DNA of 64,000 nucleotides. It comes from Planctomycetota bacterium. Lineage in GTDB: Bacteria > Planctomycetota > UBA1135 > GCA-002748355. The DNA is taken from assembly GCA_002748355.1 (NCBI GenBank), contig PDSF01000029.1:110262-174261 (forward strand), in the 5' to 3' direction. How positions within the stretch are numbered: the stretch's first letter is position 1; every line of letters starts with the position of its first letter. The notes beneath the pieces are model-generated. The model saw nothing but the letters and a program-made list of their open reading frames with translations, was not told the DNA's origin and did not search any database. Positions 3,729-48,437 of the stretch are shown in pieces. The translations under genes were made by a program, and so were the position numbers.

Positions 3729-5135
3729 ATGACGCGCAGCAAAGCAGAGGGGGGAACGATGACAGGTCGGGCTGTGGTATGGGGACTGGGACGTTTTGGT
3801 GGAGGCCTGGCTGCCTTCGCCCATCTTCGGCGCTGCGGCTACCAGGTCGACGTCGTCGACAAGCGGGATGCCCAAGAGATCCGGGCCAGCCTCGCCGAGA
3901 GCGGCATCGAAGCCGGCAGCGTCGAGTTGCTGGCAGAGGCTCCCGAGTCCTTCGCCGGCGCCGACCTGGTCGTAGTCAACCCCGCGGTTCACCCGGAGCA
4001 TCCTCTCTATCGCCACCTAATCAACTCGGGCGTCGAGCTGAGCCAAGAAATCGACCTGGCTCTCAGCGCCTACCCCGGCGAGGTCGTGGCAGTCACCGGC
4101 ACGAATGGCAAGAGCAGCACCAGCGCTCTCTTGCAGCAGCTTCTGTTGGCTTCGGGACGAGACGCCCTCCTCGGCGGCAACATCGGCCGCAGCCTCTTCG
4201 AAGACCGCGAGAGTTGGCACTCCGAGCAGATAGCCGTCTTGGAGATTTCTTCGTTCCAGGCCTTCCGCCTGCAGCTCGCCCCGCGGCTGCGCGCGGTCCT
4301 GGTCACCAACCTCGATGAAGACCACCTCGACTGGCACGGCTCCCGCGACCAGTACCACGCCGCCAAGCTGCGGCTAAGCGGCGCCCTTCAGCCAGGTGGC
4401 CGGATGCTGGGGCACAGCAGCGATCCCGCGTGGCGGCAGTTCTGCACAAGCGAGGGGCCCGGGCAGTGTCTCCTGGTCGGAGGCGCCGGGCAGGCCCTGC
4501 GCCTCGATCCCGATGGAGCGATCCGCCTCGAAGGCAAGAGCATCCTCGCTGCGGACGCGCCCTACCCCAGCGCCCAGCCCCTTCGCGAGAATGCTCTTTT
4601 AGCTCTCGCGGCGGCCCAGGAACTCGGCTGCGACATCAGCGGCCTGGGTGAGAGCCTCGCCCAGTTCCAGGGCCTTGAGCATCGCATGCAGCGGCTCGCA
4701 CCCGCGCAGGGGGTGGAGTTCATCGACAACGGTATCTCGACGGTGGCGCGATCGAGCGAGGTGGCGATCGACAGCTATCGCAGCGCTCCCGGCTTGCACT
4801 GGGTCGTCGGCGGACACCCCAAACGACCGGAGCTCGACGAGCACATCGGCATCGCCGCCAGCTGCAGCAGTGTCCACATCTTTGGCGAAGTCGCCGAGCG
4901 CTTGGCGCCAGCCATGCGAGCCGCTCACCCGCAGCTCATGGTCACAGGCCCCCACCCGGAACTGAACTCAGCCCTGGTCGCCGCCTTCAAAGGTGCAGGG
5001 CCTGGCGAAATCGTCCTTTTCAGCCCGGGATTCTCGTCCCATGACGCCTATCCGAACTTCGCGGCCCGCGCCGCCGAAGCTCGCGAGATCTGGTCGGCCT
5101 TGCGCTCGCGCACGGTCGGTGCGAACGTGCAATAG
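3729..5135 (+). CDS. murD: UDP-N-acetylmuramoyl-L-alanine--D-glutamate ligase
   Basis: 468-aa ORF. N-terminal Rossmann-like VWGLGRFGGGLAAFAHLRRCGYQVDVVD and the Mur ligase P-loop VVAVTGTNGKSSTSALL. The exact start may be a few codons downstream. Confidence 0.85.
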   Translation: MTRSKAEGGTMTGRAVVWGLGRFGGGLAAFAHLRRCGYQVDVVDKRDAQEIRASLAESGIEAGSVELLAEAPESFAGADLVVVNPAVHPEHPLYRHLINSGVELSQEIDLALSAYPGEVVAVTGTNGKSSTSALLQQLLLASGRDALLGGNIGRSLFEDRESWHSEQIAVLEISSFQAFRLQLAPRLRAVLVTNLDEDHLDWHGSRDQYHAAKLRLSGALQPGGRMLGHSSDPAWRQFCTSEGPGQCLLVGGAGQALRLDPDGAIRLEGKSILAADAPYPSAQPLRENALLALAAAQELGCDISGLGESLAQFQGLEHRMQRLAPAQGVEFIDNGISTVARSSEVAIDSYRSAPGLHWVVGGHPKRPELDEHIGIAASCSSVHIFGEVAERLAPAMRAAHPQLMVTGPHPELNSALVAAFKGAGPGEIVLFSPGFSSHDAYPNFAARAAEAREIWSALRSRTVGANVQ

Positions 5136-40788: not shown

Positions 40789-41859
40789 ATGGACCCGATC
40801 GCCTTCGACGCCTCGTGCCTGGTGAACGAGCGATCGACGGGTGTCGAGCGCTCCTTTCTCATCACGCTCGAAGCATTCACCAAACTGCCAGACATGCCGC
40901 CGTGCGTGGTCTACCGCCCAGCTCAGAGTCGAACGGAACTCCCTCCGGGCGTGGAGATCCGAGAGATCCCTCGGCTACCGCTCAGCCTATGGCGTTCGAC
41001 CCTCCTCCCGCGTGCCTTGCACGAAGAAAACGCCGCCGCCCTCCTGAGCCCGACCACGGCGCTACCGCGCCTGGCCCCATGCCCGCGCATCGCCACAGTG
41101 CACGAACTTCCCGGGGGCTATGCCGGGGCCCGCGAGCACGCCTTCGAGGAACTCCGCCACGAGCGAGCCATCGACGGGCTGCCACAGCGCGCCGACCGGG
41201 TCCTGGTGCCGTCCGAACACACGCGAAGGGATCTGCTACGGCGCAGCCCCGTCCTCGCCCCCCGCACCCGAGTGCAGCCGCAACCCCTGCATCCCTATTT
41301 TCTGGAGCCCTACCCGGCCGTGCCCTTCTCGGCGCGCCGCGGCCTGCTCTTCGTCGGTCAATCGCGACGGCGCAAAAACCTACCCCGCATCCTCCACGCA
41401 TGGGAACAGCTCCCTGAAGCCCTGCGCCTGGAGCATCCTCTCTTCTGGGTCGGGGGAGCCATCGACGCCGGGGGGCAGAAAGGACTAGCGAGCGGCATCG
41501 AACTCTTACCCGAACTCGATCAGACAGAGATCGTCCACCGCATGTCCCTGGTTCGAGGCCTGCTCCTGCCCTCACTGAGCGAAGGCTTCGGCATCCCCGC
41601 TCTTGAGGCACTCGCCGTCGGCACCCCGGTTCTCGGCTCCAAGGGCAGTGTCACCGAAGAACTGTGTGGCGAACTCAGCACCCTCGTCGACCCCTATGAC
41701 GTGCACGCCATCCTCATTGCCATGGAGGAGCTACTGCGCAGCCCGGCGGCATGGGAGCGCAGTTCGGCCTCCGGCCCCGAGCTGGCAGCCAAATACACCC
41801 CCGCCCTCAGCGCCGAGCACTGGCGCTCGGTGCTAGAAGAGCTGGGGGTCATGGGATGA
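40789..41859 (+). CDS. glycosyltransferase family 4
   Basis: 356-aa ORF with LPSLSEGFGIPALEALAVGTPVLGS. Confidence 0.8.
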   Translation: MDPIAFDASCLVNERSTGVERSFLITLEAFTKLPDMPPCVVYRPAQSRTELPPGVEIREIPRLPLSLWRSTLLPRALHEENAAALLSPTTALPRLAPCPRIATVHELPGGYAGAREHAFEELRHERAIDGLPQRADRVLVPSEHTRRDLLRRSPVLAPRTRVQPQPLHPYFLEPYPAVPFSARRGLLFVGQSRRRKNLPRILHAWEQLPEALRLEHPLFWVGGAIDAGGQKGLASGIELLPELDQTEIVHRMSLVRGLLLPSLSEGFGIPALEALAVGTPVLGSKGSVTEELCGELSTLVDPYDVHAILIAMEELLRSPAAWERSSASGPELAAKYTPALSAEHWRSVLEELGVMG

Positions 41860-42983
41860 CGGGGCTCAAGGTTGGGATCGCCTGCTGGCTCCCGCTCGCA
41901 CCACACTCAGGCGCCAAGACCCGGCTCTTCGGTTTCCTGCGCGGGCTGGCCCGTATCAGCGAAGCACAAGGTCATGAGTGGATCCTCCTCGGAAACTCCC
42001 GCTCTCCCGGATTTGCCCAGCTACACCAGCTCGTCGCCCAGATCCCCGGAGGCCAACTCTTCAGCGTCGCCATCCCCGAGTCTGGTCGCCAACGCGCGCT
42101 AGCCGAGAGGAGAATCCTCCCAAAGGTCTGCGAGGAGCTGCAACTCGACGTTCTCGACCTGCAAAGTCTCCCTGTCCCCCATCTCACCCAAACGAAGATC
42201 CTCACCACCATCCACGACATTCGTGACCGAGGGGAGTGGCGACGCAGCCGTATCCACAAGCTCCTCGCCAAGCCCCTGCTGGCTCAGGCGCTGAAGCTCA
42301 GCGCCCGGATGATCGTGCCGAGTCCCCAGGTTCGCCAAGAGCTCAAAGAGCTGCTGGGGGAGGACAGCGAGAAGCTGCAGGTGGTGCCTGCCGGCCTAGA
42401 TCGACAAGAGCTGCAGGAAGAAACGCGGAAAGGGCCACAGATGCGCTTCTTCCTCAACATCGGCCGAGACGAAGCCCGTAAGCGCCTGGAGTTCTTGCTA
42501 CGCGCCTACGCCTGGGCACTGGAGCGTAACCCCAAGCTGGAGATGCTGGCCCAAGTCGGCGCCAGCCGACGCCAGCGCCTCGACCGACTCTGTCGCCAGC
42601 TCGGCATCGAGCAGCGTATCGTCTGGATGGGCGAGCTCGACAATGCCTCACTACACCGGGTTCTGGATGACTCACTCGCCATGATCTTTCCCTCGGCGCT
42701 GGAGGGCTTTGGCCTACCGGTGCTCGAAGCGATGACGCACGGGCGTCCAAGCGTGGTCGCCAAAGGGGGCCCGCCCGCCTGGCTCGTCGGCGAAGGCGGC
42801 CTCCAGCTCGACGGGGACTCCATCGAAGCCTTTGGCAACGCCATGCTCCGCCTATCTGCCGAACCCGAGTTCTGCACTTCGCTCGGGGCTCTCGCCTATG
42901 AACGCGCTGCAGAATTTAGCATCGAACGCTGCACCCGCCTTTGGCTCAGGCAGATCGAAGCAGCGGCGTCGTCGCAGGTCTGA
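41856..42983 (+). CDS. glycosyltransferase family 4
   Basis: I chose the start at ATG 41856 (MTGLKVGIACW), which forms an ATGA overlap with the previous GT. Contains FPSALEGFGLPVLEAMTHGRPSVV. The track start at 41751 lies inside the previous gene. Confidence 0.8.
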   Translation: MTGLKVGIACWLPLAPHSGAKTRLFGFLRGLARISEAQGHEWILLGNSRSPGFAQLHQLVAQIPGGQLFSVAIPESGRQRALAERRILPKVCEELQLDVLDLQSLPVPHLTQTKILTTIHDIRDRGEWRRSRIHKLLAKPLLAQALKLSARMIVPSPQVRQELKELLGEDSEKLQVVPAGLDRQELQEETRKGPQMRFFLNIGRDEARKRLEFLLRAYAWALERNPKLEMLAQVGASRRQRLDRLCRQLGIEQRIVWMGELDNASLHRVLDDSLAMIFPSALEGFGLPVLEAMTHGRPSVVAKGGPPAWLVGEGGLQLDGDSIEAFGNAMLRLSAEPEFCTSLGALAYERAAEFSIERCTRLWLRQIEAAASSQV

Positions 42984-43056
42984 GGAGGAAACTCTCATGA
43001 CTCAGGACGACGCCGCTGCCTAGCCCGGATCCCTCGTCGAGATCACTGAGCCTGAA

Positions 43057-43554
43057 TCACTGATCTCCCAGGCGCTTCCCCTTGCGGACGCGCTCGATCT
43101 CCGTGCGAGAGGTCGCATAGGTCAGGAGCCCTAGGCCAATCGCCAGCAGGAAAGAGCCGGGAATAAACAGCACATCCTCAGCCACGATCCAGGCAGAGGC
43201 GCAGAAGGCGCCCCCCAAAAGAAAGATGATGAGCCCAGAGAGAAGGTAGCCGTCGCCGGATTTGCCCTTCCTGCTGCCGCCCTCTAGCTCCTGCGCCGCA
43301 CCCTCCATCGAAACAAATCGCTGCGGCTCAGCGGCATCCTCGTTCTCGACGCGGTATCTCATCGCATGTGGGTCATGGAGCTTGCCACTCAGGATGCGCT
43401 CGACGGCGGCCGGGTCCTGGTAGCGTTGAACGAGTTCGTGCTTCAGCTTTGCCTCGATCTTCGCAACCTTCGTAATCCGCTCGTTCTCGATCGCGGTCAC
43501 GATGATTCGGTACGCGAAGTACCCTAGGGCAGTCCAAAAAAAGTATGTCCACAC
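43057..43554 (-). CDS. hypothetical membrane protein
   Basis: 165-aa ORF with an N-terminal TM (YFFWTALGYFAYRIIV), a charged helical linker and C-terminal TMs (LLSGLIIFLLGGAFCASAWIV, FLLAIGLGLLTY). Downstream of the FHA gene on the same strand. Confidence 0.5.
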   Translation of the reverse strand: MWTYFFWTALGYFAYRIIVTAIENERITKVAKIEAKLKHELVQRYQDPAAVERILSGKLHDPHAMRYRVENEDAAEPQRFVSMEGAAQELEGGSRKGKSGDGYLLSGLIIFLLGGAFCASAWIVAEDVLFIPGSFLLAIGLGLLTYATSRTEIERVRKGKRLGDQ

Positions 43555-43675
43555 GGTCCGTTCCTCCTCAGGCAGGCTCGAGAAGCTGCCCAGTGCGCGA
43601 CTCTGTCGCGGCTATTGCCAAGTTTCCTGCCTCGGACTCACAGCAACAAGACAACAAGAACGAGAGCGGCGCCTT

Positions 43676-44269
43676 TCAACTCGCAAGCTTGAAGGCCAAG
43701 TAGGCGAGGCCGGCGCCGATTCCCAGGACGAGGAGGAAGAACCCGACGCGCTGCAGAGGGCCGCGCTGCGCCAGATCATCGGCATAGAACCCTCCCCGCT
43801 TGGGCTGGCTGTAGCGCAGCACCCCCGAGGGCAAACGGTGCGGGTCATCCTTCCCCGATAGCGGCGTCACCACCGCCGAATCGAGGCTCGGGCCCTCCTT
43901 CGCAGCCACGCGCGCAGGCGCCACACGAGGTTCCACCAACGGAGCCGCAGCCACGCTGGGCGCCGGCGCCTCGATACGCACCCGCAACTCGATCGGCCCC
44001 AGGGCAAAGACCGCCCCATCCTCCAGCCGAACCTTCTGCACCCGCTGCCCCTTGAGCTTGGTCCCATTGGCCGAGCCCAGGTCCTCCAGAAAGAGTTCAT
44101 CTCCCTGGCGAACAAGCCGAGCGTGTCTGCGCGAAACGCCCTGGTCATGCAAGGTGAGATCACATTCAGCAAGCCGCCCGATGCTCAACTCGTCTACGAC
44201 AACAGCTTCCTCACCAGCGGAGTTACCGGTCAGCACATACAGATTCACCCGAGGTTTGGACGGAGTCAT
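43676..44269 (-). CDS. FHA-domain protein with a C-terminal transmembrane anchor
   Basis: I chose the start at ATG 44269 (MTPSKPRVNLYV...). FHA core SIGRLAECDLTLHDQGVSRRHARLVRQGDELFLEDLGSANGTKLKG. C-terminal TM FFLLVLGIGAGLAYLAF. Confidence 0.75.
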   Translation of the reverse strand: MTPSKPRVNLYVLTGNSAGEEAVVVDELSIGRLAECDLTLHDQGVSRRHARLVRQGDELFLEDLGSANGTKLKGQRVQKVRLEDGAVFALGPIELRVRIEAPAPSVAAAPLVEPRVAPARVAAKEGPSLDSAVVTPLSGKDDPHRLPSGVLRYSQPKRGGFYADDLAQRGPLQRVGFFLLVLGIGAGLAYLAFKLAS

Positions 44270-44771
44270 GCAAGGGCTCTCGAACGAAGATCGCAAAGCG
44301 GCACCAGACGCAAGCGCCAAAGCCAGCCTACCCCAAGCCGCCTCCTGAGCCTCCGGGCTTTCGCTGAGCGATCAAAGAAGCCGGCAGGGCGGGTTTCTTG
44401 GCCCGCTGGCCTTAGAAATAGCTGCTGTTGGCGGAACCGGGGTTTTCGAGGAAGAGACCGTCTCCCTGACGAAGCAGCCGGGCGTGTTTGCTTGAGACGG
44501 CCTGGTCGTGCAACGTGAGATTGCAATCGGGAAGCTGCCCGACGCGCAACGCGTCGGGGGCCGCGGCTTCCTCAGCGGCGGAGTTGCCGGTCGGCACATA
44601 CAGATTCACCTGAGCTTTGGACTCGGTCATGCAAGGGCTCTCGAACGACGATCGCGAAGAAGCGCCGGGCGCAGGTGCCGGGACCGACCCGACCCAAGCC
44701 GCAGTCTGGGTCTCTGGTCTTTCGCTGAGCTACCAGAGGAGCCGGCTGGGTGGGCTGCTTGGCCGTGGGCG
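44067..44771. repeat. diverged tandem segmental duplication, two ~345-nt copies with period 361 nt
   Basis: Copy A is 44067-44411 and copy B is 44428-44771, aligned by eye. A near-identical core surrounds the start codons (cacatacagattcacc ... tcatgcaagggctctcgaacga). Each copy holds the 5' ends of the FHA gene (minus) and the ABC ATPase gene (plus). Confidence 0.8.
44412..44630 (-). pseudogene. truncated FHA-domain paralog (72 aa) created by the tandem duplication
   Basis: MTESKAQVNLYVPTGNSAAEEAAAPDALRVGQLPDCNLTLHDQAVSSKHARLLRQGDGLFLENPGSANSSYF is collinear with residues 1-68 of the full FHA protein. It stops in the duplication junction and lacks the distal FHA strands and the TM tail. Confidence 0.5.
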
Positions 44772-45552
44772 ATTTGAGGTCCTCCACGACCTGAGCTTTG
44801 ACGCTCAGCGCGGCGAGATCGTCGGCGTCGTCGGGCCCAATGGCTCGGGCAAATCGAGCCTGTTCCGCAGCCTTCTTGGCCTCGAAGCAGCCCGCGGCGA
44901 TGTGCGCCTGCTGGGGCTGCGCCCCGGTGCCCGCGAACTGCGCAAACGCATCGGCAGCAGCTCGGACGAGGGCTTGCCCTTCCCGGAATTCACCGCATTG
45001 GAGCTGCTCACCCTGGACGGGAGCCTGTCCGGCCAGCCACTGCACAGCGCCAAGGCCAAGGCCGAGGCCATGCTCGAACGCGTCGGACTCACCGATGCCC
45101 GGCGGCGACGGCATGGAGAATTCTCCAGCGGCATGCAGAAACGCCTGGCCCTGGCCCATGCCCTGCTCCTGGAGCCGGAGATCCTCCTCCTGGATGAGCC
45201 AACCGCCAACCTTGACCCCATCGGCATCCGCCTCGTCGCTGAGGAGCTAGGCAAGTTCCAGGAGCAAGGCGGCTGCGCCCTGGTCGCGACACACGGGCTG
45301 GAGGATTTCCCCGGGCTCTTCTCCCGCCTACTGGTCCTGCTTGAGGGGCGCCGCATCGCCTTTGGCAGCCCCGAGCAGGTGCTTGGAGAGCTCGATCGCT
45401 TCGAGCTGCGTTTAGAAAGCAACGACAGGGAGCTGCTCGCGAGCCTGGCGCAGAAGGCGAGCCAACAGGGCATCACCGGACAAAAGCTTGGCCCGCTCCA
45501 GCGCAGCCTCGGCAAGATGCTGGCCGAAGCCCAGGAACGAGCGGCGCCATGA
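44629..45552 (+). CDS. ABC transporter ATP-binding protein
   Basis: Walker A GPNGSGKSS, signature FSSGMQKRLALA, Walker B LLLDEPTANLD. The first ATG is at 44629; the track start at 44617 is a TTG in the same frame. Confidence 0.85.
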   Translation: MQGLSNDDREEAPGAGAGTDPTQAAVWVSGLSLSYQRSRLGGLLGRGRFEVLHDLSFDAQRGEIVGVVGPNGSGKSSLFRSLLGLEAARGDVRLLGLRPGARELRKRIGSSSDEGLPFPEFTALELLTLDGSLSGQPLHSAKAKAEAMLERVGLTDARRRRHGEFSSGMQKRLALAHALLLEPEILLLDEPTANLDPIGIRLVAEELGKFQEQGGCALVATHGLEDFPGLFSRLLVLLEGRRIAFGSPEQVLGELDRFELRLESNDRELLASLAQKASQQGITGQKLGPLQRSLGKMLAEAQERAAP

Positions 45553-46643
45553 GCAGCTGGCCGGTCCTGATTCGCTGCCTCGTCCGGGGGCTAGAGCTGT
45601 CCTCCTGGCTCATCCTCGGCGCCGGCGCCTTTCTGGCCCTGCTTCTGGGGCGGGATTTCGGTGCCCGCGGAGCCGAAGAGCAGTTCGGCCTCCTCGCCCA
45701 GCCGCTGTCCTGGCTCCCCCTCCTCGCCGTGCTCTGCGCCGCAGCGCAGGCTCTCCGCGTCTGGCCGGCACATTCGCCGAGCCAGCCCGGCTACCGCAGC
45801 CTTTGGCTCATGGGCGCGCCGATCGCCCGCTGCCGAGTCGCGGCCTGGCTCGGGGGCATGGCGGCGGGTCTGCTGCTCCTCGCCGGGGCGGGGCTGCTGC
45901 TCTTCCTCAACTTGCTCGGGCAGCCACATCCGGACTTCGCCCGTGCCTTTCAGGCCCGCTTTGCTGACGTCTTGGGCCGGACTCCCTGGATCTCTCGCCC
46001 TGGCGAATTCCAAGAGCTACGGGTGCCCAAGCTCCAGCAAGCGCGCCGACTCCGGCTGGAGCCGCTCTATGTCTTCGCCAGCCGGGAGCTGGCCGACTCC
46101 TGGGCGCCGGTGCAGGTGGAGGTCCTGGCCCTTGGCCTCGACGCAAGGTCGCAGGAGCCGCTGCGGCTGGGCAAGCTCACGCTGGCGGAACCGGGGGCCA
46201 GGCTCGATCTGGAGCTTCCTCCCGAGCTGCCCACGCCCTGCGCCATCCGCCTGGTGCGAGAGCCCGGGCCGCTGAGTTTCTCCGTTTCCTTCGAACTGGG
46301 TACCGCCACGGTCGAGCATGAACGGGTCGCGACCTGGCGCGCCAGCATCGAACTGGGGCTGCAATATGCGCCCTGGCTCGCCCTGGTGCTGTCGCTGGCC
46401 TTTCTGGTCGCCCGCTTTGCACCACCGGCCCTGAGTCCCTTCGCCTGGCTGCTCGTGCTGCCGGCCCTGGCCTCGCTCCCCGGACTCGAAACCCCAGCGA
46501 CCCTGCGCTCGCTCCTACTCGGACAGGTCCCGAGCTGGGCCCAGCTTGGACGTGAGCCCTGGCTGATCGCCGGAGCCCTGCTCTTGGTCTCGCTGCTGCC
46601 GGCCCGGCCGCGAGTGGCTGCTGCGGACAGGAGTGGCGCATGA
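45549..46643 (+). CDS. ABC transporter-associated polytopic membrane protein (putative permease)
   Basis: 364-aa ORF with TM clusters at both ends and a central soluble domain of ~150 aa. ATGA overlap with the ATPase gene. Confidence 0.5.
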   Translation: MSSWPVLIRCLVRGLELSSWLILGAGAFLALLLGRDFGARGAEEQFGLLAQPLSWLPLLAVLCAAAQALRVWPAHSPSQPGYRSLWLMGAPIARCRVAAWLGGMAAGLLLLAGAGLLLFLNLLGQPHPDFARAFQARFADVLGRTPWISRPGEFQELRVPKLQQARRLRLEPLYVFASRELADSWAPVQVEVLALGLDARSQEPLRLGKLTLAEPGARLDLELPPELPTPCAIRLVREPGPLSFSVSFELGTATVEHERVATWRASIELGLQYAPWLALVLSLAFLVARFAPPALSPFAWLLVLPALASLPGLETPATLRSLLLGQVPSWAQLGREPWLIAGALLLVSLLPARPRVAAADRSGA

Positions 46644-47464
46644 AGCTTCACAAGCCGCACAAACGCCTCGCCCTCGGCGCATTGCTCCTCGGTGTTGCCG
46701 CTGGAGGAATCTCCCTGTCCAAACCTCGCCCGGTCGCGGCCACCGAGATACTACAGAGCACGGGACTACTCCGCGGGCTCGCCGTGCCCTTCCTCTGGAC
46801 CGGGTTAGGCGATGCCGCCCAGAAAGGAGAGCTCCGCCAAGCGCTGAATCTCGGCCGACTCCTGCTGCGAGTCGTCCCAGAATACGAAATGCTCTGGCAG
46901 GCCCTGGCCCTGCGCTACGCCTACCAATTGCCCCTGGCCAAGAGCAGCCCAGAGCGGGAGGCTGGCCGCCTCATGGAAGCCCTGGTGATCCTCGAAGAGG
47001 CGGGGCGCCGCTGGCCCCATCGGGCAGAGCCGCGCTCCCTGGCCGCCTTCCTGCTCTACGACCGCTGCCTGGGCCAGGGGGCCGCAGCGCAGGCCCGGCG
47101 CCGCGCTTTCGAAGAGCTAAGCGGCCTCGACACCGAGCAACAGGCGGCCAAGCTACTCGCAGCGGCGGGTCGCATTCGCGGCGCGCCGCTCGCGGTCGAC
47201 GCACTCGCTCCCCAGCTGGCGCTCTCGACCCTGGCCCGGGGCGAACGCCAACTCGCAGCTCAGCTGCTGGAGCGGGCCGCCTCACTCTTGGCCGAATTCC
47301 CCGAGCCGGACCCAGCAGAGAGAGCCGAGGAGGAGATTCGCCGGCAGCTGTACCAGCGATTCGCCCGATGGCTGCGAGAGAACCCCTCCGCAGAACTGCC
47401 GCCCCAACTCCTGGAAGAGCTTCGGGAGGCCAGGCCAAGTGACCGATCCAAGGAAGATAGGTAG
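46640..47464 (+). CDS. hypothetical N-terminally anchored helical protein
   Basis: 274-aa ORF with TM LALGALLLGVAAGGISL. ATGA overlap with the permease-like gene. The remainder looks helical, possibly TPR-like. Confidence 0.45.
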   Translation: MKLHKPHKRLALGALLLGVAAGGISLSKPRPVAATEILQSTGLLRGLAVPFLWTGLGDAAQKGELRQALNLGRLLLRVVPEYEMLWQALALRYAYQLPLAKSSPEREAGRLMEALVILEEAGRRWPHRAEPRSLAAFLLYDRCLGQGAAAQARRRAFEELSGLDTEQQAAKLLAAAGRIRGAPLAVDALAPQLALSTLARGERQLAAQLLERAASLLAEFPEPDPAERAEEEIRRQLYQRFARWLRENPSAELPPQLLEELREARPSDRSKEDR

Positions 47465-47552
47465 GACGAAGCCGCTCAGCGGCTTATCGTCACCCGTCGC
47501 CGAGCATTCATGAGGAGTAGGCCCCCTGCTTGAGAGTTTCGTCGAGCTCTGC

Positions 47553-48437
47553 TTGGAGTACCCCGAGTACCCCTACCTGATCATCTTCGGGATCCTGCTG
47601 CTCTGCGGAGTCGGCTTGCCGTTGCCCGAGGAGATCATCGCCATCGGCTCTGGCTACCTGAGCGCGAAGTACCCGGAGCTTGTACACCCCTGGATCGGCT
47701 GGGGCGTCATCGTCGGCTCGATCCTCATTAGTGACTCGATCCCGTTCTCGCTCGGCAAAGCCTTCGGCCCGCGGCTGCTGCGCCTGCGCCTGATGCGAAG
47801 CTGGATGCATCAAGAGCGGCTCGCTTCCTTCGACTCCTGGTTCAGGAATCACGGCAACAAGACCATCCTGATCTCGCGTTTCTTGCCCGGGATCCGGGTG
47901 CCGGCCTTCTTCACCGCCGGCTGCATGGGCGTCAGCTACCTGCGCTTCCTGATCCTGAACGGCCTGGGCGCCCTGATCAGCTCCGGGGCCTTCATCTTCC
48001 TCGGTAACCGCTTCAGCAACCAAATCGACCAGGTCGTGGACTGGGTCCAGGGCACCGAGCGGGGCCTGCTGATCATCCTCGGTGTCGGCGGCGCCCTCTT
48101 CTTGGCTTGGTGGATGTGGAAGAGCCACCGGCGCCGCAAGCTCCTGGGCGAGGATATCCGTGAGACCTTCGTCGAGCCGACCCGGCGTCGGCACGAGGTC
48201 CACATCCTCCCCTCGGCGCGCCGTCCCTTTGGACCACCGCCACCGCCGGAGATCGCCGCTCGCATCCAGAAGCGCCAAGACGAAGCGGACGGTGCGGAAG
48301 AGCCGGGCGAGGAAGCTCCCAAACGCACTGACGAAGCCCCGCGCAGCGGCATCGCTTCGAACCCTGCCAGCACCCGAGCAACGAGGGCACCGTCGAGCAA
48401 GCCTCAGGCCCAAGGCGGCGGTGGCAAGCAAGCTTGA
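47553..48437 (+). CDS. DedA/SNARE-associated family membrane protein with a disordered basic/Pro-rich C-terminal tail
   Basis: 294-aa ORF with a TTG start. DedA motifs GVGLPLPEEIIAIGSGYL and ISRFLPGIRVPAFFTAG are present. Confidence 0.75.
   Translation: MEYPEYPYLIIFGILLLCGVGLPLPEEIIAIGSGYLSAKYPELVHPWIGWGVIVGSILISDSIPFSLGKAFGPRLLRLRLMRSWMHQERLASFDSWFRNHGNKTILISRFLPGIRVPAFFTAGCMGVSYLRFLILNGLGALISSGAFIFLGNRFSNQIDQVVDWVQGTERGLLIILGVGGALFLAWWMWKSHRRRKLLGEDIRETFVEPTRRRHEVHILPSARRPFGPPPPPEIAARIQKRQDEADGAEEPGEEAPKRTDEAPRSGIASNPASTRATRAPSSKPQAQGGGGKQA

Follow-up and report, generated by a model that had tools for sequence, protein, structure and literature searches.

The window analysed here is a 64,000-nt stretch of a Planctomycetota genome (contig PDSF01000029.1), and all positions below are those of this stretch. 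On the minus strand at 43676-44269 lies a functional gene for a 197-aa FHA-TM protein, identified from its match to Pfam FHA (E=9e-20), an AF2 model, and orthologues in seven lineages. The FHA domain occupies residues 7-100, and a disordered linker connects it to a C-terminal transmembrane (TM) helix at residues 171-196. The top PDB matches are FhaA (3po8, E=1e-8) and the FHA domain of Rv1747 (6cah, E=7e-5), and the top NCBIfam match is FhaB_Rv0019c, with all NCBIfam scores falling far under their cut-offs (66 vs 125 bits). Divergently from it, on the plus strand at 44629-45552, runs a functional gene for a 307-aa DrrA/ABC-2-like ABC ATPase (Pfam ABC_tran, E=1.5e-28), whose top NCBIfam match is the drrA subfamily with a score under the cut-off of that family. 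Two downstream operon partners, also on the plus strand (45549-47464), encode a membrane protein of 364 aa and a second protein of 274 aa; Pfam and NCBIfam gave no match for either of them, and both are co-conserved with the FHA/ABC pair.

The start codons of the divergent FHA-TM and ABC ATPase genes are straddled by a 361-nt unit that is present in exactly two head-to-tail copies. Copy A (44034-44403) and copy B (44395-44764), neither of which is assigned to a strand, stand in a register of 361 nt and are 75% identical without indels, and positions 44395-44403 are an apparent junction microhomology that copy B has in common with the end of copy A. From the FHA gene (minus strand) each copy includes 236 nt of the 5' end, about 78 codons, and from the ABC gene (plus strand) 137 nt of the 5' end, about 45 codons. 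In copy A the FHA part belongs to the functional gene and the ABC part is dead; in copy B the FHA part is dead and the ABC part belongs to the functional gene. The repeat was detected by a self-repeat search (300 nt, 74% identity, spacing 361), independently recovered in a MAFFT alignment, and reported by TRF with a period of 361, 1.8 copies, 77% matches, 0% indels, and a score of 852. A blastn comparison of the two copies gave a gap-free alignment of 363 nt at 75.2% identity (E=1.1e-68), and their ungapped identity of 0.747 compares with 0.263 +/- 0.022 for shuffled sequences (z=22); no third copy was found in the window by blastn. The first-pass annotation had described, by eye, a diverged tandem duplication of a head-to-head FHA/ABC junction with a period of 361 nt, 75-80% identity, and about 45 ABC codons per copy, in which the left side retains an intact FHA gene with an ABC stub, and the right side an intact ABC gene with an FHA stub. 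The formal alignments bear this out, and the coordinates it gave for the four open reading frames are correct. Its copy bounds (44067-44411 and 44428-44771, separated by a 16-nt gap) need revision, as the copies abut and reach about 33 nt further left, and its estimate of about 65 FHA codons per copy is too low.

The crossover between the copies falls inside TTCTTGGCC|CGCTG at 44395-44408, where identity switches from the ABC side to the FHA side within CTTGGCC|CGCTG. The parental breakpoint sites have CTnCTnnnCCG in common, and the 25% divergence accumulated since then blurs the original microhomology. Identity between the copies rises to 88% in the 80-nt core around each CATG. The absence of indels over 361 nt was considered as a sign of length constraint and rejected, being not significant when calibrated on orthologous intergenic DNA (about 1.4 indels predicted, P(0) of about 0.25).

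In both copies the divergent start codons interlock in the motif CATG, as the first-pass annotation had noted. At 44267-44270 the minus-strand ATG is the start of the functional FHA gene and the plus-strand ATG that of the dead ABC stub; at 44628-44631 the minus-strand ATG starts the dead FHA stub and the plus-strand ATG the functional ABC gene. Both ATGs appear to be real start codons: from 44632 to the Walker A motif the ABC frame is free of further start codons, and its MQGLSN N-terminus is conserved in the relative L002, while the FHA N-terminus MT.S.PRV, which lies upstream of the GTG chosen by the gene caller, is conserved in L002 and L007, where the codons differ synonymously. Each of these interlocks pairs one live gene with one neutral stub, and the functional starts, at 44269 (FHA) and 44629 (ABC), lie 359 nt apart. 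The earlier proposal that the arrangement forces antisense overlap of the two 5' ends is not supported for the present locus; the live starts are now separated and the interlocks pair with stubs, so the duplication lifted the constraint and did not double it. Forced overlap applies instead to the single-copy, ancestral state seen in the relatives L002, L007, and L003, in which both functional partners overlap at CATG. The interlock is not universal in the wider family, since L008 has an 82-nt gap and L009 a 151-nt gap at this junction and L011 and L012 are ambiguous, but the CATG overlap is ancestral in the subclade and of a known rare class. A window-wide listing of CATG sites with long ORFs running both ways was uninformative, as spurious long ORFs abound at 63% GC.

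The first-pass annotation had left open whether relatives carry one copy of the junction or two. Seven related Planctomycetota lineages have the same gene neighbourhood with a single junction (loci L002, L007, L003-6, L008, L009/10, L011, and L012/13). Parsimony-informative sites group copy A with copy B at 16 sites, against 8 and 3 for the two alternative pairings with outgroup sequences (AB|OO2 16, AO|BO2 8, BO|AO2 3), so the copies are sisters and the duplication arose on the lineage of the source genome. Closer relatives were sought by scanning genome and metagenome contigs with permease profiles and with junction-core DNA patterns, neither of which gave a match, and a search of 5.8 billion proteins returned no FHA orthologue with an identity between 66% and 100%.

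The halves of the two copies that are still joined to complete genes have evolved very differently from the inner halves. Lineage-specific changes were polarised with L002, the sole close outgroup, and with just 16-32 changes counted per branch, the pN/pS estimates given here carry a wide error. On this basis, pN/pS is 0.05 for the functional FHA segment, with changes at codon positions 1, 2, and 3 of [2,1,13], and 0.89 for the FHA stub, the 72-codon open frame at 44412-44630 on the minus strand that now sits upstream of the functional ABC gene and whose changes are evenly spread over the codon positions ([11,12,9]). These two spectra differ significantly (Fisher test, p=0.0007), and a Tajima relative-rate test, with 16 changes on the live FHA branch vs 32 on that of the stub, gives p=0.02; overall, the doubled rate of the stub has a p of about 0.02-0.03. 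The ABC side behaves similarly, with pN/pS of 0.37 and changes of [2,3,5] for the functional segment and 0.93 and [6,6,5] for the ABC stub (44268-44404, plus strand), which now lies immediately upstream of the functional FHA gene. The ABC stub contains a 26-codon ORF (44268-44348) that ends where a conserved Trp codon, TGG in copy B and in L002, has become TGA at codon 27; recognisable ABC N-terminal codons run on in frame past this stop to the end of the unit, and everything from the Walker A motif onward is missing. The stub lineage has accumulated about 0.15 substitutions per site and no indels. A simple pairwise dN/dS of copy A against copy B gave an omega of about 0.32-0.36 in both halves, which resembled weak purifying selection; we set this estimate aside, as it mixes constrained and unconstrained branches. 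The polarised substitution patterns show both inner fragments evolving as neutral sequence, and while they may have had an early function that was later lost, the FHA stub now has the signature of a neutral relic.

We believe that the locus very probably records an old in situ tandem duplication of the 361-bp junction, after which the inner 5' fragments decayed neutrally into spacer. A segment spanning the CATG-interlocked FHA-TM and ABC starts would have been duplicated after the split from the closest sampled relatives, likely by illegitimate recombination or slippage at the short imperfect homology CTnCTnnnCCG, located at about codon 78 of the FHA gene and codon 45 of the ABC gene. The outer copies, still joined to complete genes, would have remained functional, and the inner fragments would have been redundant from the outset because the 5' ends alone were copied. 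Drifting neutrally, these fragments would together have become the 359-nt spacer between the functional start codons, leaving each live gene with its native upstream sequence, now freed from the coding constraint of the partner gene. The promoters and ribosome-binding sites (RBS) of the live genes presumably lie in the adjoining stub DNA, the sole hint of them being a run of 25 unchanged nt with a GAGAG motif. This run is the part of the ABC stub adjoining the FHA ATG, in which no stub-lineage changes occurred and about 3.8 were expected, and the GAGAG lies 7 nt upstream of that ATG (-8 to -12). In view of these unchanged positions and the 88% identity of the core, the spacer is probably not pure junk throughout, some of it being under constraint as a leader or promoter.

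The same positions bear on the idea that the duplicate was kept for regulation, supplying private upstream regions, a tandem promoter copy, and 26- and 72-codon upstream ORFs that uncouple or tune the expression of FHA and ABC. The relatives with the CATG overlap must hold their upstream signals inside the partner gene, and after the duplication such signals fall in non-coding stubs; the doubled control region suggested by the first-pass annotation, in the form of tandem promoter copies, is also geometrically possible. Apart from the conserved core and the unchanged 25 nt with GAGAG, such retention would accord with the indel-free alignment over 361 nt and with the persistence of the duplicate through a divergence of about 0.16 substitutions per site. 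The coding decay of the stubs is itself compatible with a regulatory role. Against this, the lack of indels is not significant, the tests of core conservation are post hoc, and the bases at -4 to -6 upstream of the live ABC ATG have all changed on the stub lineage. A scan of 43400-45000 for sigma70 promoters and intrinsic terminators found no sites, and no -10 element positioned for leaderless transcription from either CATG ATG was seen by eye. Folded as RNA, the two strands of the 359-nt spacer gave z-scores of +0.55 and +0.14, with no structure signal, and an Rfam scan returned a single sub-threshold chance match inside the ABC gene. As the duplication is present in one genome only, selected retention is inseparable from slow deletion. 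We therefore regard a regulatory role as rather unlikely, and have the same doubt about the more specific suggestion that fixation and retention came about because the two genes, with promoters and RBS regions embedded in each other's first codons, were thereby un-interlocked. In that case the stubs would fill all of these roles, with a conserved core of 25-80 nt in the private leader and promoter DNA.

A different kind of retention was raised by the first-pass annotation, which suggested that the FHA stub keeps the phosphothreonine-binding core and may yield a soluble decoy; as a maintained gene, it would encode a mini-FHA protein competing for the phosphothreonine ligands of the full FHA-TM protein. 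The 72 codons are open, a gene caller predicts a 65-aa product from them, and Pfam recognises a partial FHA domain (31.1 bits vs a cut-off of 20.7, profile positions 2-45 of 67). The stub also shares the upstream context of the live FHA gene and has kept its ATG intact, and may for this reason still be translated. The phosphothreonine ligand is bound in FHA domains by residues of the pattern G-R ... S-x-x-H ... N-G. The stub retains S-x-x-H (as S-S-K-H) and the Asn, but its GR has become GQ (Arg32->Gln) and its NGT has become NSS, so that the Arg of GR and the Gly and Thr after the Asn, all invariant in 10 full-length homologues, have been lost. Family-invariant residues have not been spared in general, with changes from the live FHA at 7 of 18 such positions and 19 of 54 others. 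Nor does the stub encode a complete 11-strand beta-sandwich: it ends at residue 72 of a domain that extends to about residue 100, PDB FHA domains align to the live protein up to residue 99, and the last four strands of the AF2 model (75-77, 79-82, 87-90, and 93-100) lie past the stub end. The open frame was also considered as a sign of selection on the stub and rejected, as a 72-codon frame stays open by chance in 33-51% of simulations. No relative has an orthologous stub, and the near-neutral pN/pS, flat codon-position spectrum, and doubled substitution rate described above are those of a relic; purifying selection on the stub, which the first-pass annotation had named as a reason to treat it as a real gene, is not what we found. 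A maintained mini-FHA is thus very improbable, and the 72-aa and 26-aa ORFs would probably be without function even if translated. The peptides of these stub ORFs would read MTESKAQVNLYVPTGNSAAEE... and MQGLSNEDRKAAPDASAK....

It is also conceivable that recombination or horizontal transfer brought a homologous fragment of the junction of a diverged relative in beside the resident one, as the live halves are nearer to L002 than to their in-genome paralogues (FHA part, A-L002 80.5% vs A-B 74.6%; ABC part, B-L002 76.6% vs A-B 75.2%). The doubled rate on the stub lineages explains this closeness, and the 16:8:3 split of informative sites, the perfect head-to-tail register, and the meeting of the unit boundaries at one apparent microhomology with no foreign flanks make such an origin highly implausible. 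Although the sequence comes from a metagenome-assembled genome, an artefact of assembly or binning, such as two strain variants collapsed in tandem, can be dismissed with near certainty, as the 25% divergence between the copies far exceeds strain variation, the flanks differ exactly as one continuous locus would predict, the stop codon and neutral substitution spectrum are confined to the inner halves in a pattern that chimerism would not give, and the 1 kb across the junction matches an independently made Logan assembly of SRR6011892 (L001) at 100% identity.

The preferred history of duplication followed by decay resembles tandem-duplication/random-loss (TDRL), a general evolutionary model familiar above all from mitochondrial genomes, in which remnants of partial genes are left at junctions. 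As in TDRL, a segment was copied head to tail, and the redundant copies lost constraint, gained stops, and drifted until one functional copy per gene was left. The locus differs in that 5' ends only were copied, so that the dying copy was set by geometry rather than at random, and gene order is unchanged; the sole lasting effect is a 359-nt spacer between formerly overlapping start codons. Divergent overlaps make up 0.9% of overlapping gene pairs, and 73% of these are of the AT type (2026 survey, bioRxiv 10.64898/2026.09.10.750558), a rarity that has been attributed to the need for encoding upstream signals (PMC2174442). The junctions of L002, L007, and L003 and both copies in the window are like these AT-type (CATG) overlaps in that the two ATGs have their central AT in common, but the overlaps in the window no longer join two live genes. 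A further comparison concerns the locus and not the duplication. The live FHA-TM protein resembles actinobacterial FHA proteins that partner ABC exporters or are small and membrane-anchored, namely Rv1747, FhaA (TB39.8), and FhaB/FipA of Mycobacterium tuberculosis, in that it has a canonical FHA domain, is anchored in the membrane, and is genetically paired with an ABC ATPase. In contrast to these actinobacterial proteins, the planctomycetote protein has an N-terminal FHA domain and a C-terminal TM helix, and FHA and ABC are separate, divergently encoded polypeptides.

The locus is otherwise an example of ordinary genome evolution and implies neither a new mechanism nor a new protein function. 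It does have consequences for annotation: remnants, and not genes, is how both the 26-codon ORF and the "FHA domain protein" of 65-72 aa should be annotated, and gene callers misplace the FHA start in relatives in a way that avoids the CATG overlap. If the duplication was indeed retained because it separated the two genes, this would be a natural example of a divergent gene overlap resolved by partial duplication. For this uncultured lineage of Planctomycetota, the locus provides an internal yardstick of the neutral rate. It is also a natural experiment, in which the same gene pair is interlocked in L002, L007, and L003 and stands 359 nt of former coding DNA apart in the source genome, and this contrast could serve to study the transcription of divergent overlapping starts and the cost of such an overlap.

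Our analysis showed that the start junction between a divergent pair of FHA and ABC ATPase genes is present twice in direct orientation, the two copies starting 361 nt apart, an arrangement recovered by four independent methods. A repeat search gave 300 nt at 74% identity between the copies, a MAFFT alignment recovered both copies at the same spacing, Tandem Repeats Finder reported a period of 361 with 77% matches, 0% indels, and a score of 852, and blastn aligned 363 nt ungapped at 75.2% (E=1.1e-68). Ungapped identity over the full unit was 0.747, far above that of 2000 shuffles (0.263 +/- 0.022; z=22). Matches in register 361, counted in sliding 20-nt windows, were 12-18/20 across approximately 44034-44404 and 3-7/20 in the background on either side. 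The unit occurs exactly twice, as abutting copies A (44034-44403) and B (44395-44764), and no third copy was found in the 64-kb window. The first-pass annotation had described a diverged duplication of this period, which these results bear out; its extents of 44067-44411 and 44428-44771, however, missed approximately 33 nt at the left end and implied a gap that does not exist. An assembly artefact was ruled out, as it is incompatible with 25% divergence between the copies and the independently built Logan assembly of SRR6011892 (L001) is 100% identical over 1 kb spanning both.

The sequence comes from a Planctomycetota MAG, and its FHA protein has the same sequence as NCBI CSA62_05925 (Planctomycetota bacterium). 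The intact FHA gene (43676-44269, minus strand) encodes 197 aa (Pfam FHA, E=9e-20), with beta-strands within residues 7-100 and a C-terminal helix at 171-196 in its AF2 model. The intact ABC gene (44629-45552, plus strand) encodes a 307-aa ABC ATPase (Pfam ABC_tran, E=1.5e-28), for which the top NCBIfam match is the DrrA subfamily, with a score under its cut-off. In each copy of the unit, the FHA gene is represented by its first 236 nt (~78 codons) and the ABC gene by its first 137 nt (~45 codons), and these 5' ends meet at a CATG in which both ATGs use the central AT. Between the intact genes lie an ABC stub (44268-44404, plus strand), whose ORF of 26 codons ends at a TGA in place of the TGG of copy B and the orthologue, and an FHA stub (44412-44630, minus strand) with an open frame of 72 codons. 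The earlier structural reading of a duplication with two stubs and interlocked CATG starts was thus correct. The genes 3' of the ABC gene overlap translationally and encode a membrane protein of 364 aa and a second protein of 274 aa; no Pfam or NCBIfam family matched either one. A VTT/DedA-family gene follows.

To place the duplication, we compared contigs carrying the best FHA orthologues: L002 (66% identity), L007 (50%), L003-L006 (42%), and L008, L009/L010, L011, and L012/L013 (38-42%). No FHA orthologue between 66 and 100% identity was found among 5.8 billion proteins, and further scans of genome and metagenome contig collections yielded no closer relatives. On the question of whether relatives carry one copy or two, every orthologous locus compared has a single FHA/ABC junction. 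Among informative sites in A, B, L002, and L007, 16 group A and B as sisters, versus 8 and 3 for the two other groupings. This makes the duplication specific to the lineage of the window, and its being an ancestral state lost elsewhere was rejected on the same site counts.

All of these relatives share GT4 glycosyltransferases, small membrane protein(s), an FHA-TM gene divergent from the ABC gene, a ~350-aa membrane protein, a ~270-aa protein, and a VTT-family gene. The corresponding neighbourhood (41751-48437 in the window) recurs in seven Planctomycetota lineages, including L002, L003, L008, L009, L011, and L012, and comprises three GT4 glycosyltransferases, (acylphosphatase), membrane proteins of 163-177 aa, the FHA-TM gene and a DrrA-like ABC ATPase gene in divergent orientation, a further membrane protein (345-364 aa), a protein of 258-278 aa, and the VTT/DedA gene; H+-PPase and RsfS come next in L002 and L003-L005. 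The neighbourhood may encode a phospho-regulated envelope glycoconjugate exporter. It recalls the actinobacterial FHA/ABC systems (Rv1747, FhaA, FhaB) in pairing an FHA-TM protein with an ABC-2-like exporter beside glycosyltransferases, a resemblance at the domain level only. Two intergenic blocks are also conserved here. One, GAGGAGTAGGCCCCCTGCTTGAGAGTTTCGTCGAGCTCTGCTTGGAGTACC (47505-47552), occupies ~50 nt upstream of the VTT/DedA-family gene (47553-48437) and is ~96% identical to L002 (~5003-5060), while the flanking coding DNA is less conserved (66-74% protein identity); as it contains a TAG, it is probably not coding but a conserved element of a leader or promoter. The other, GAAACTTGGCAATAGCCGCGACAGAGTCGCG (43555-43675, minus strand), lies between the FHA stop and a gene for a 165-aa membrane protein, has a small hairpin (CGCGAC-AGA-GTCGCG) in common with L002 with a 13-nt indel adjoining, and could be part of a terminator or promoter.

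Direct comparison of A and B gave dN/dS values of 0.32 and 0.36 for the two halves, which average a constrained and a possibly unconstrained branch and are uninformative, and changes were assigned to lineages with L002 as the outgroup. At codon positions 1, 2, and 3, the live FHA half has 2, 1, and 13 changes (16 in all) and the FHA stub 11, 12, and 9 (32), a difference in both spectrum (Fisher p=0.0007) and rate (Tajima test p=0.02); the live ABC half has 2, 3, and 5 (10) and the ABC stub 6, 6, and 5 (17). Lineage pN/pS was 0.05 in the live FHA half and 0.89 in its stub, and 0.37 and 0.93, respectively, for ABC. Ten full-length homologues define 18 invariant positions within FHA residues 1-72, and the stub has changed seven of them (L13P, G19A, R32Q, R47S, D63N, G69S, and T70S), a frequency that matches the 19 of 54 at variable positions. 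R32 is the GR-motif arginine, and G69 and T70 directly follow the conserved Asn; the loops bearing these residues bind phosphothreonine. The stub had been credited with keeping the phosphothreonine-binding core, which is only half true: it retains the S-x-x-H and the Asn and lacks the Arg and Gly-Thr. It also ends at residue 72, while the last four strands of the domain lie at 75-100 in the AF2 model of the full protein, and PDB FHA domains align as far as residue 99 of the live protein. The open frame was rejected as a sign of selection, since in simulations that placed the 44 inferred substitutions on the reconstructed ancestral sequence, 33-51% of runs had no stop within the first 72 codons. 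Both stubs are therefore relics, and the proposed soluble mini-FHA decoy is unsupported.

The duplication itself is old. Its novel junction joins the ABC-side parent up to ...CTTGGCC to the FHA-side parent from CCCGCTG... on, and the parental sites (CTTCTGCACCCG and CTGCTTGGCCG) resemble each other; illegitimate recombination or slippage at a short, imperfect homology would have produced the second copy. The stub lineage has accumulated ~0.15 substitutions per site. With 16 post-duplication changes in the live FHA half versus 22 on the branch that combines L002 with the pre-duplication stretch, a rough clock would date the event to roughly at least 0.8 of the split from L002.

The FHA and ABC starts are likewise interlocked in CATG in L002, L007, and L003. 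The N-terminal FHA peptide MTPS.PRV, upstream of the internal GTG chosen by gene callers, is conserved with synonymous differences, and the ABC frame has no other start ahead of its Walker A motif; both ATGs are therefore real and the overlap genuine. Gene callers dodged it by setting the FHA start 6-11 codons downstream (L002 7980-8001, L003 7968-8001, L011 2220-2238), which cuts off the conserved peptide along with some of the first beta-strand, and the 65-aa call for the FHA stub (L001 4633-4830) has the same origin. Judged from these sequences, the overlap is ancestral to the subclade of L002, L007, L003, and the window. It is not family-wide, with gaps of 82 nt in L008 and 151 nt in L009 and an ambiguous arrangement in L011/L012. 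A 2026 survey put divergent overlaps at 0.9% of overlapping gene pairs, 73% of these AT-type (bioRxiv 10.64898/2026.09.10.750558), and their rarity has been put down to upstream-signal constraints (PMC2174442); the ancestral FHA/ABC junction is a case of this known rare class. Under the ancestral interlock, the upstream signals of each gene must sit within the coding sequence of the other. In the window, the live starts (44269 and 44629) are separated by 359 nt, and in front of each live gene stands a copy of its native upstream DNA, freed from protein coding. The net effect of the duplication is a spacer between two starts that once overlapped. The forced antisense overlap suggested at first pass describes the relatives and not this genome, and the suggested reciprocal coupling is unsupported.

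Could the duplication have been retained because it decoupled the FHA and ABC control regions? The two copies are ~88% identical over the 80-nt core that surrounds each CATG, and the 25 nt of the ABC stub adjoining the FHA ATG, including a GAGAG 7 nt upstream of it, has 0 stub-lineage changes against ~3.8 expected (17 in 110 nt in the rest of the stub). These post hoc tests give a weak hint that the stub parts closest to the live starts may still be constrained. At positions -4 to -6 relative to the live ABC ATG, however, every base changed on the stub lineage. We did not find a sigma70-type promoter or intrinsic terminator at 43400-45000, a match to Rfam families, or excess RNA structure on either strand of the 359-nt spacer. 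The absence of indels from the 361-nt unit is not significant, as 2 indels in ~210 nt of orthologous window-L002 intergenic DNA, over both lineages, predict ~1.4 for the unit. We consider retention through decoupling unlikely. Separately, three adjacent bases of copy B, at 44622-44624 directly ahead of the live ABC ATG, were substituted on the stub lineage (ACGGAG to ACTCGG; 44261-44263 in copy A), which removes a GGAG found in copy A and L002; the three substitutions look like one multinucleotide event.

In the textbook process of duplication and loss, a tandem duplication arises and its redundant copies then decay. The FHA/ABC junction is a new instance of this known type of event, and differs in that the copied segment took in 5' ends alone, which predetermined the copies that would decay. 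Its main values are a corrected annotation and a natural comparison between interlocked and separated states of a divergent gene pair.
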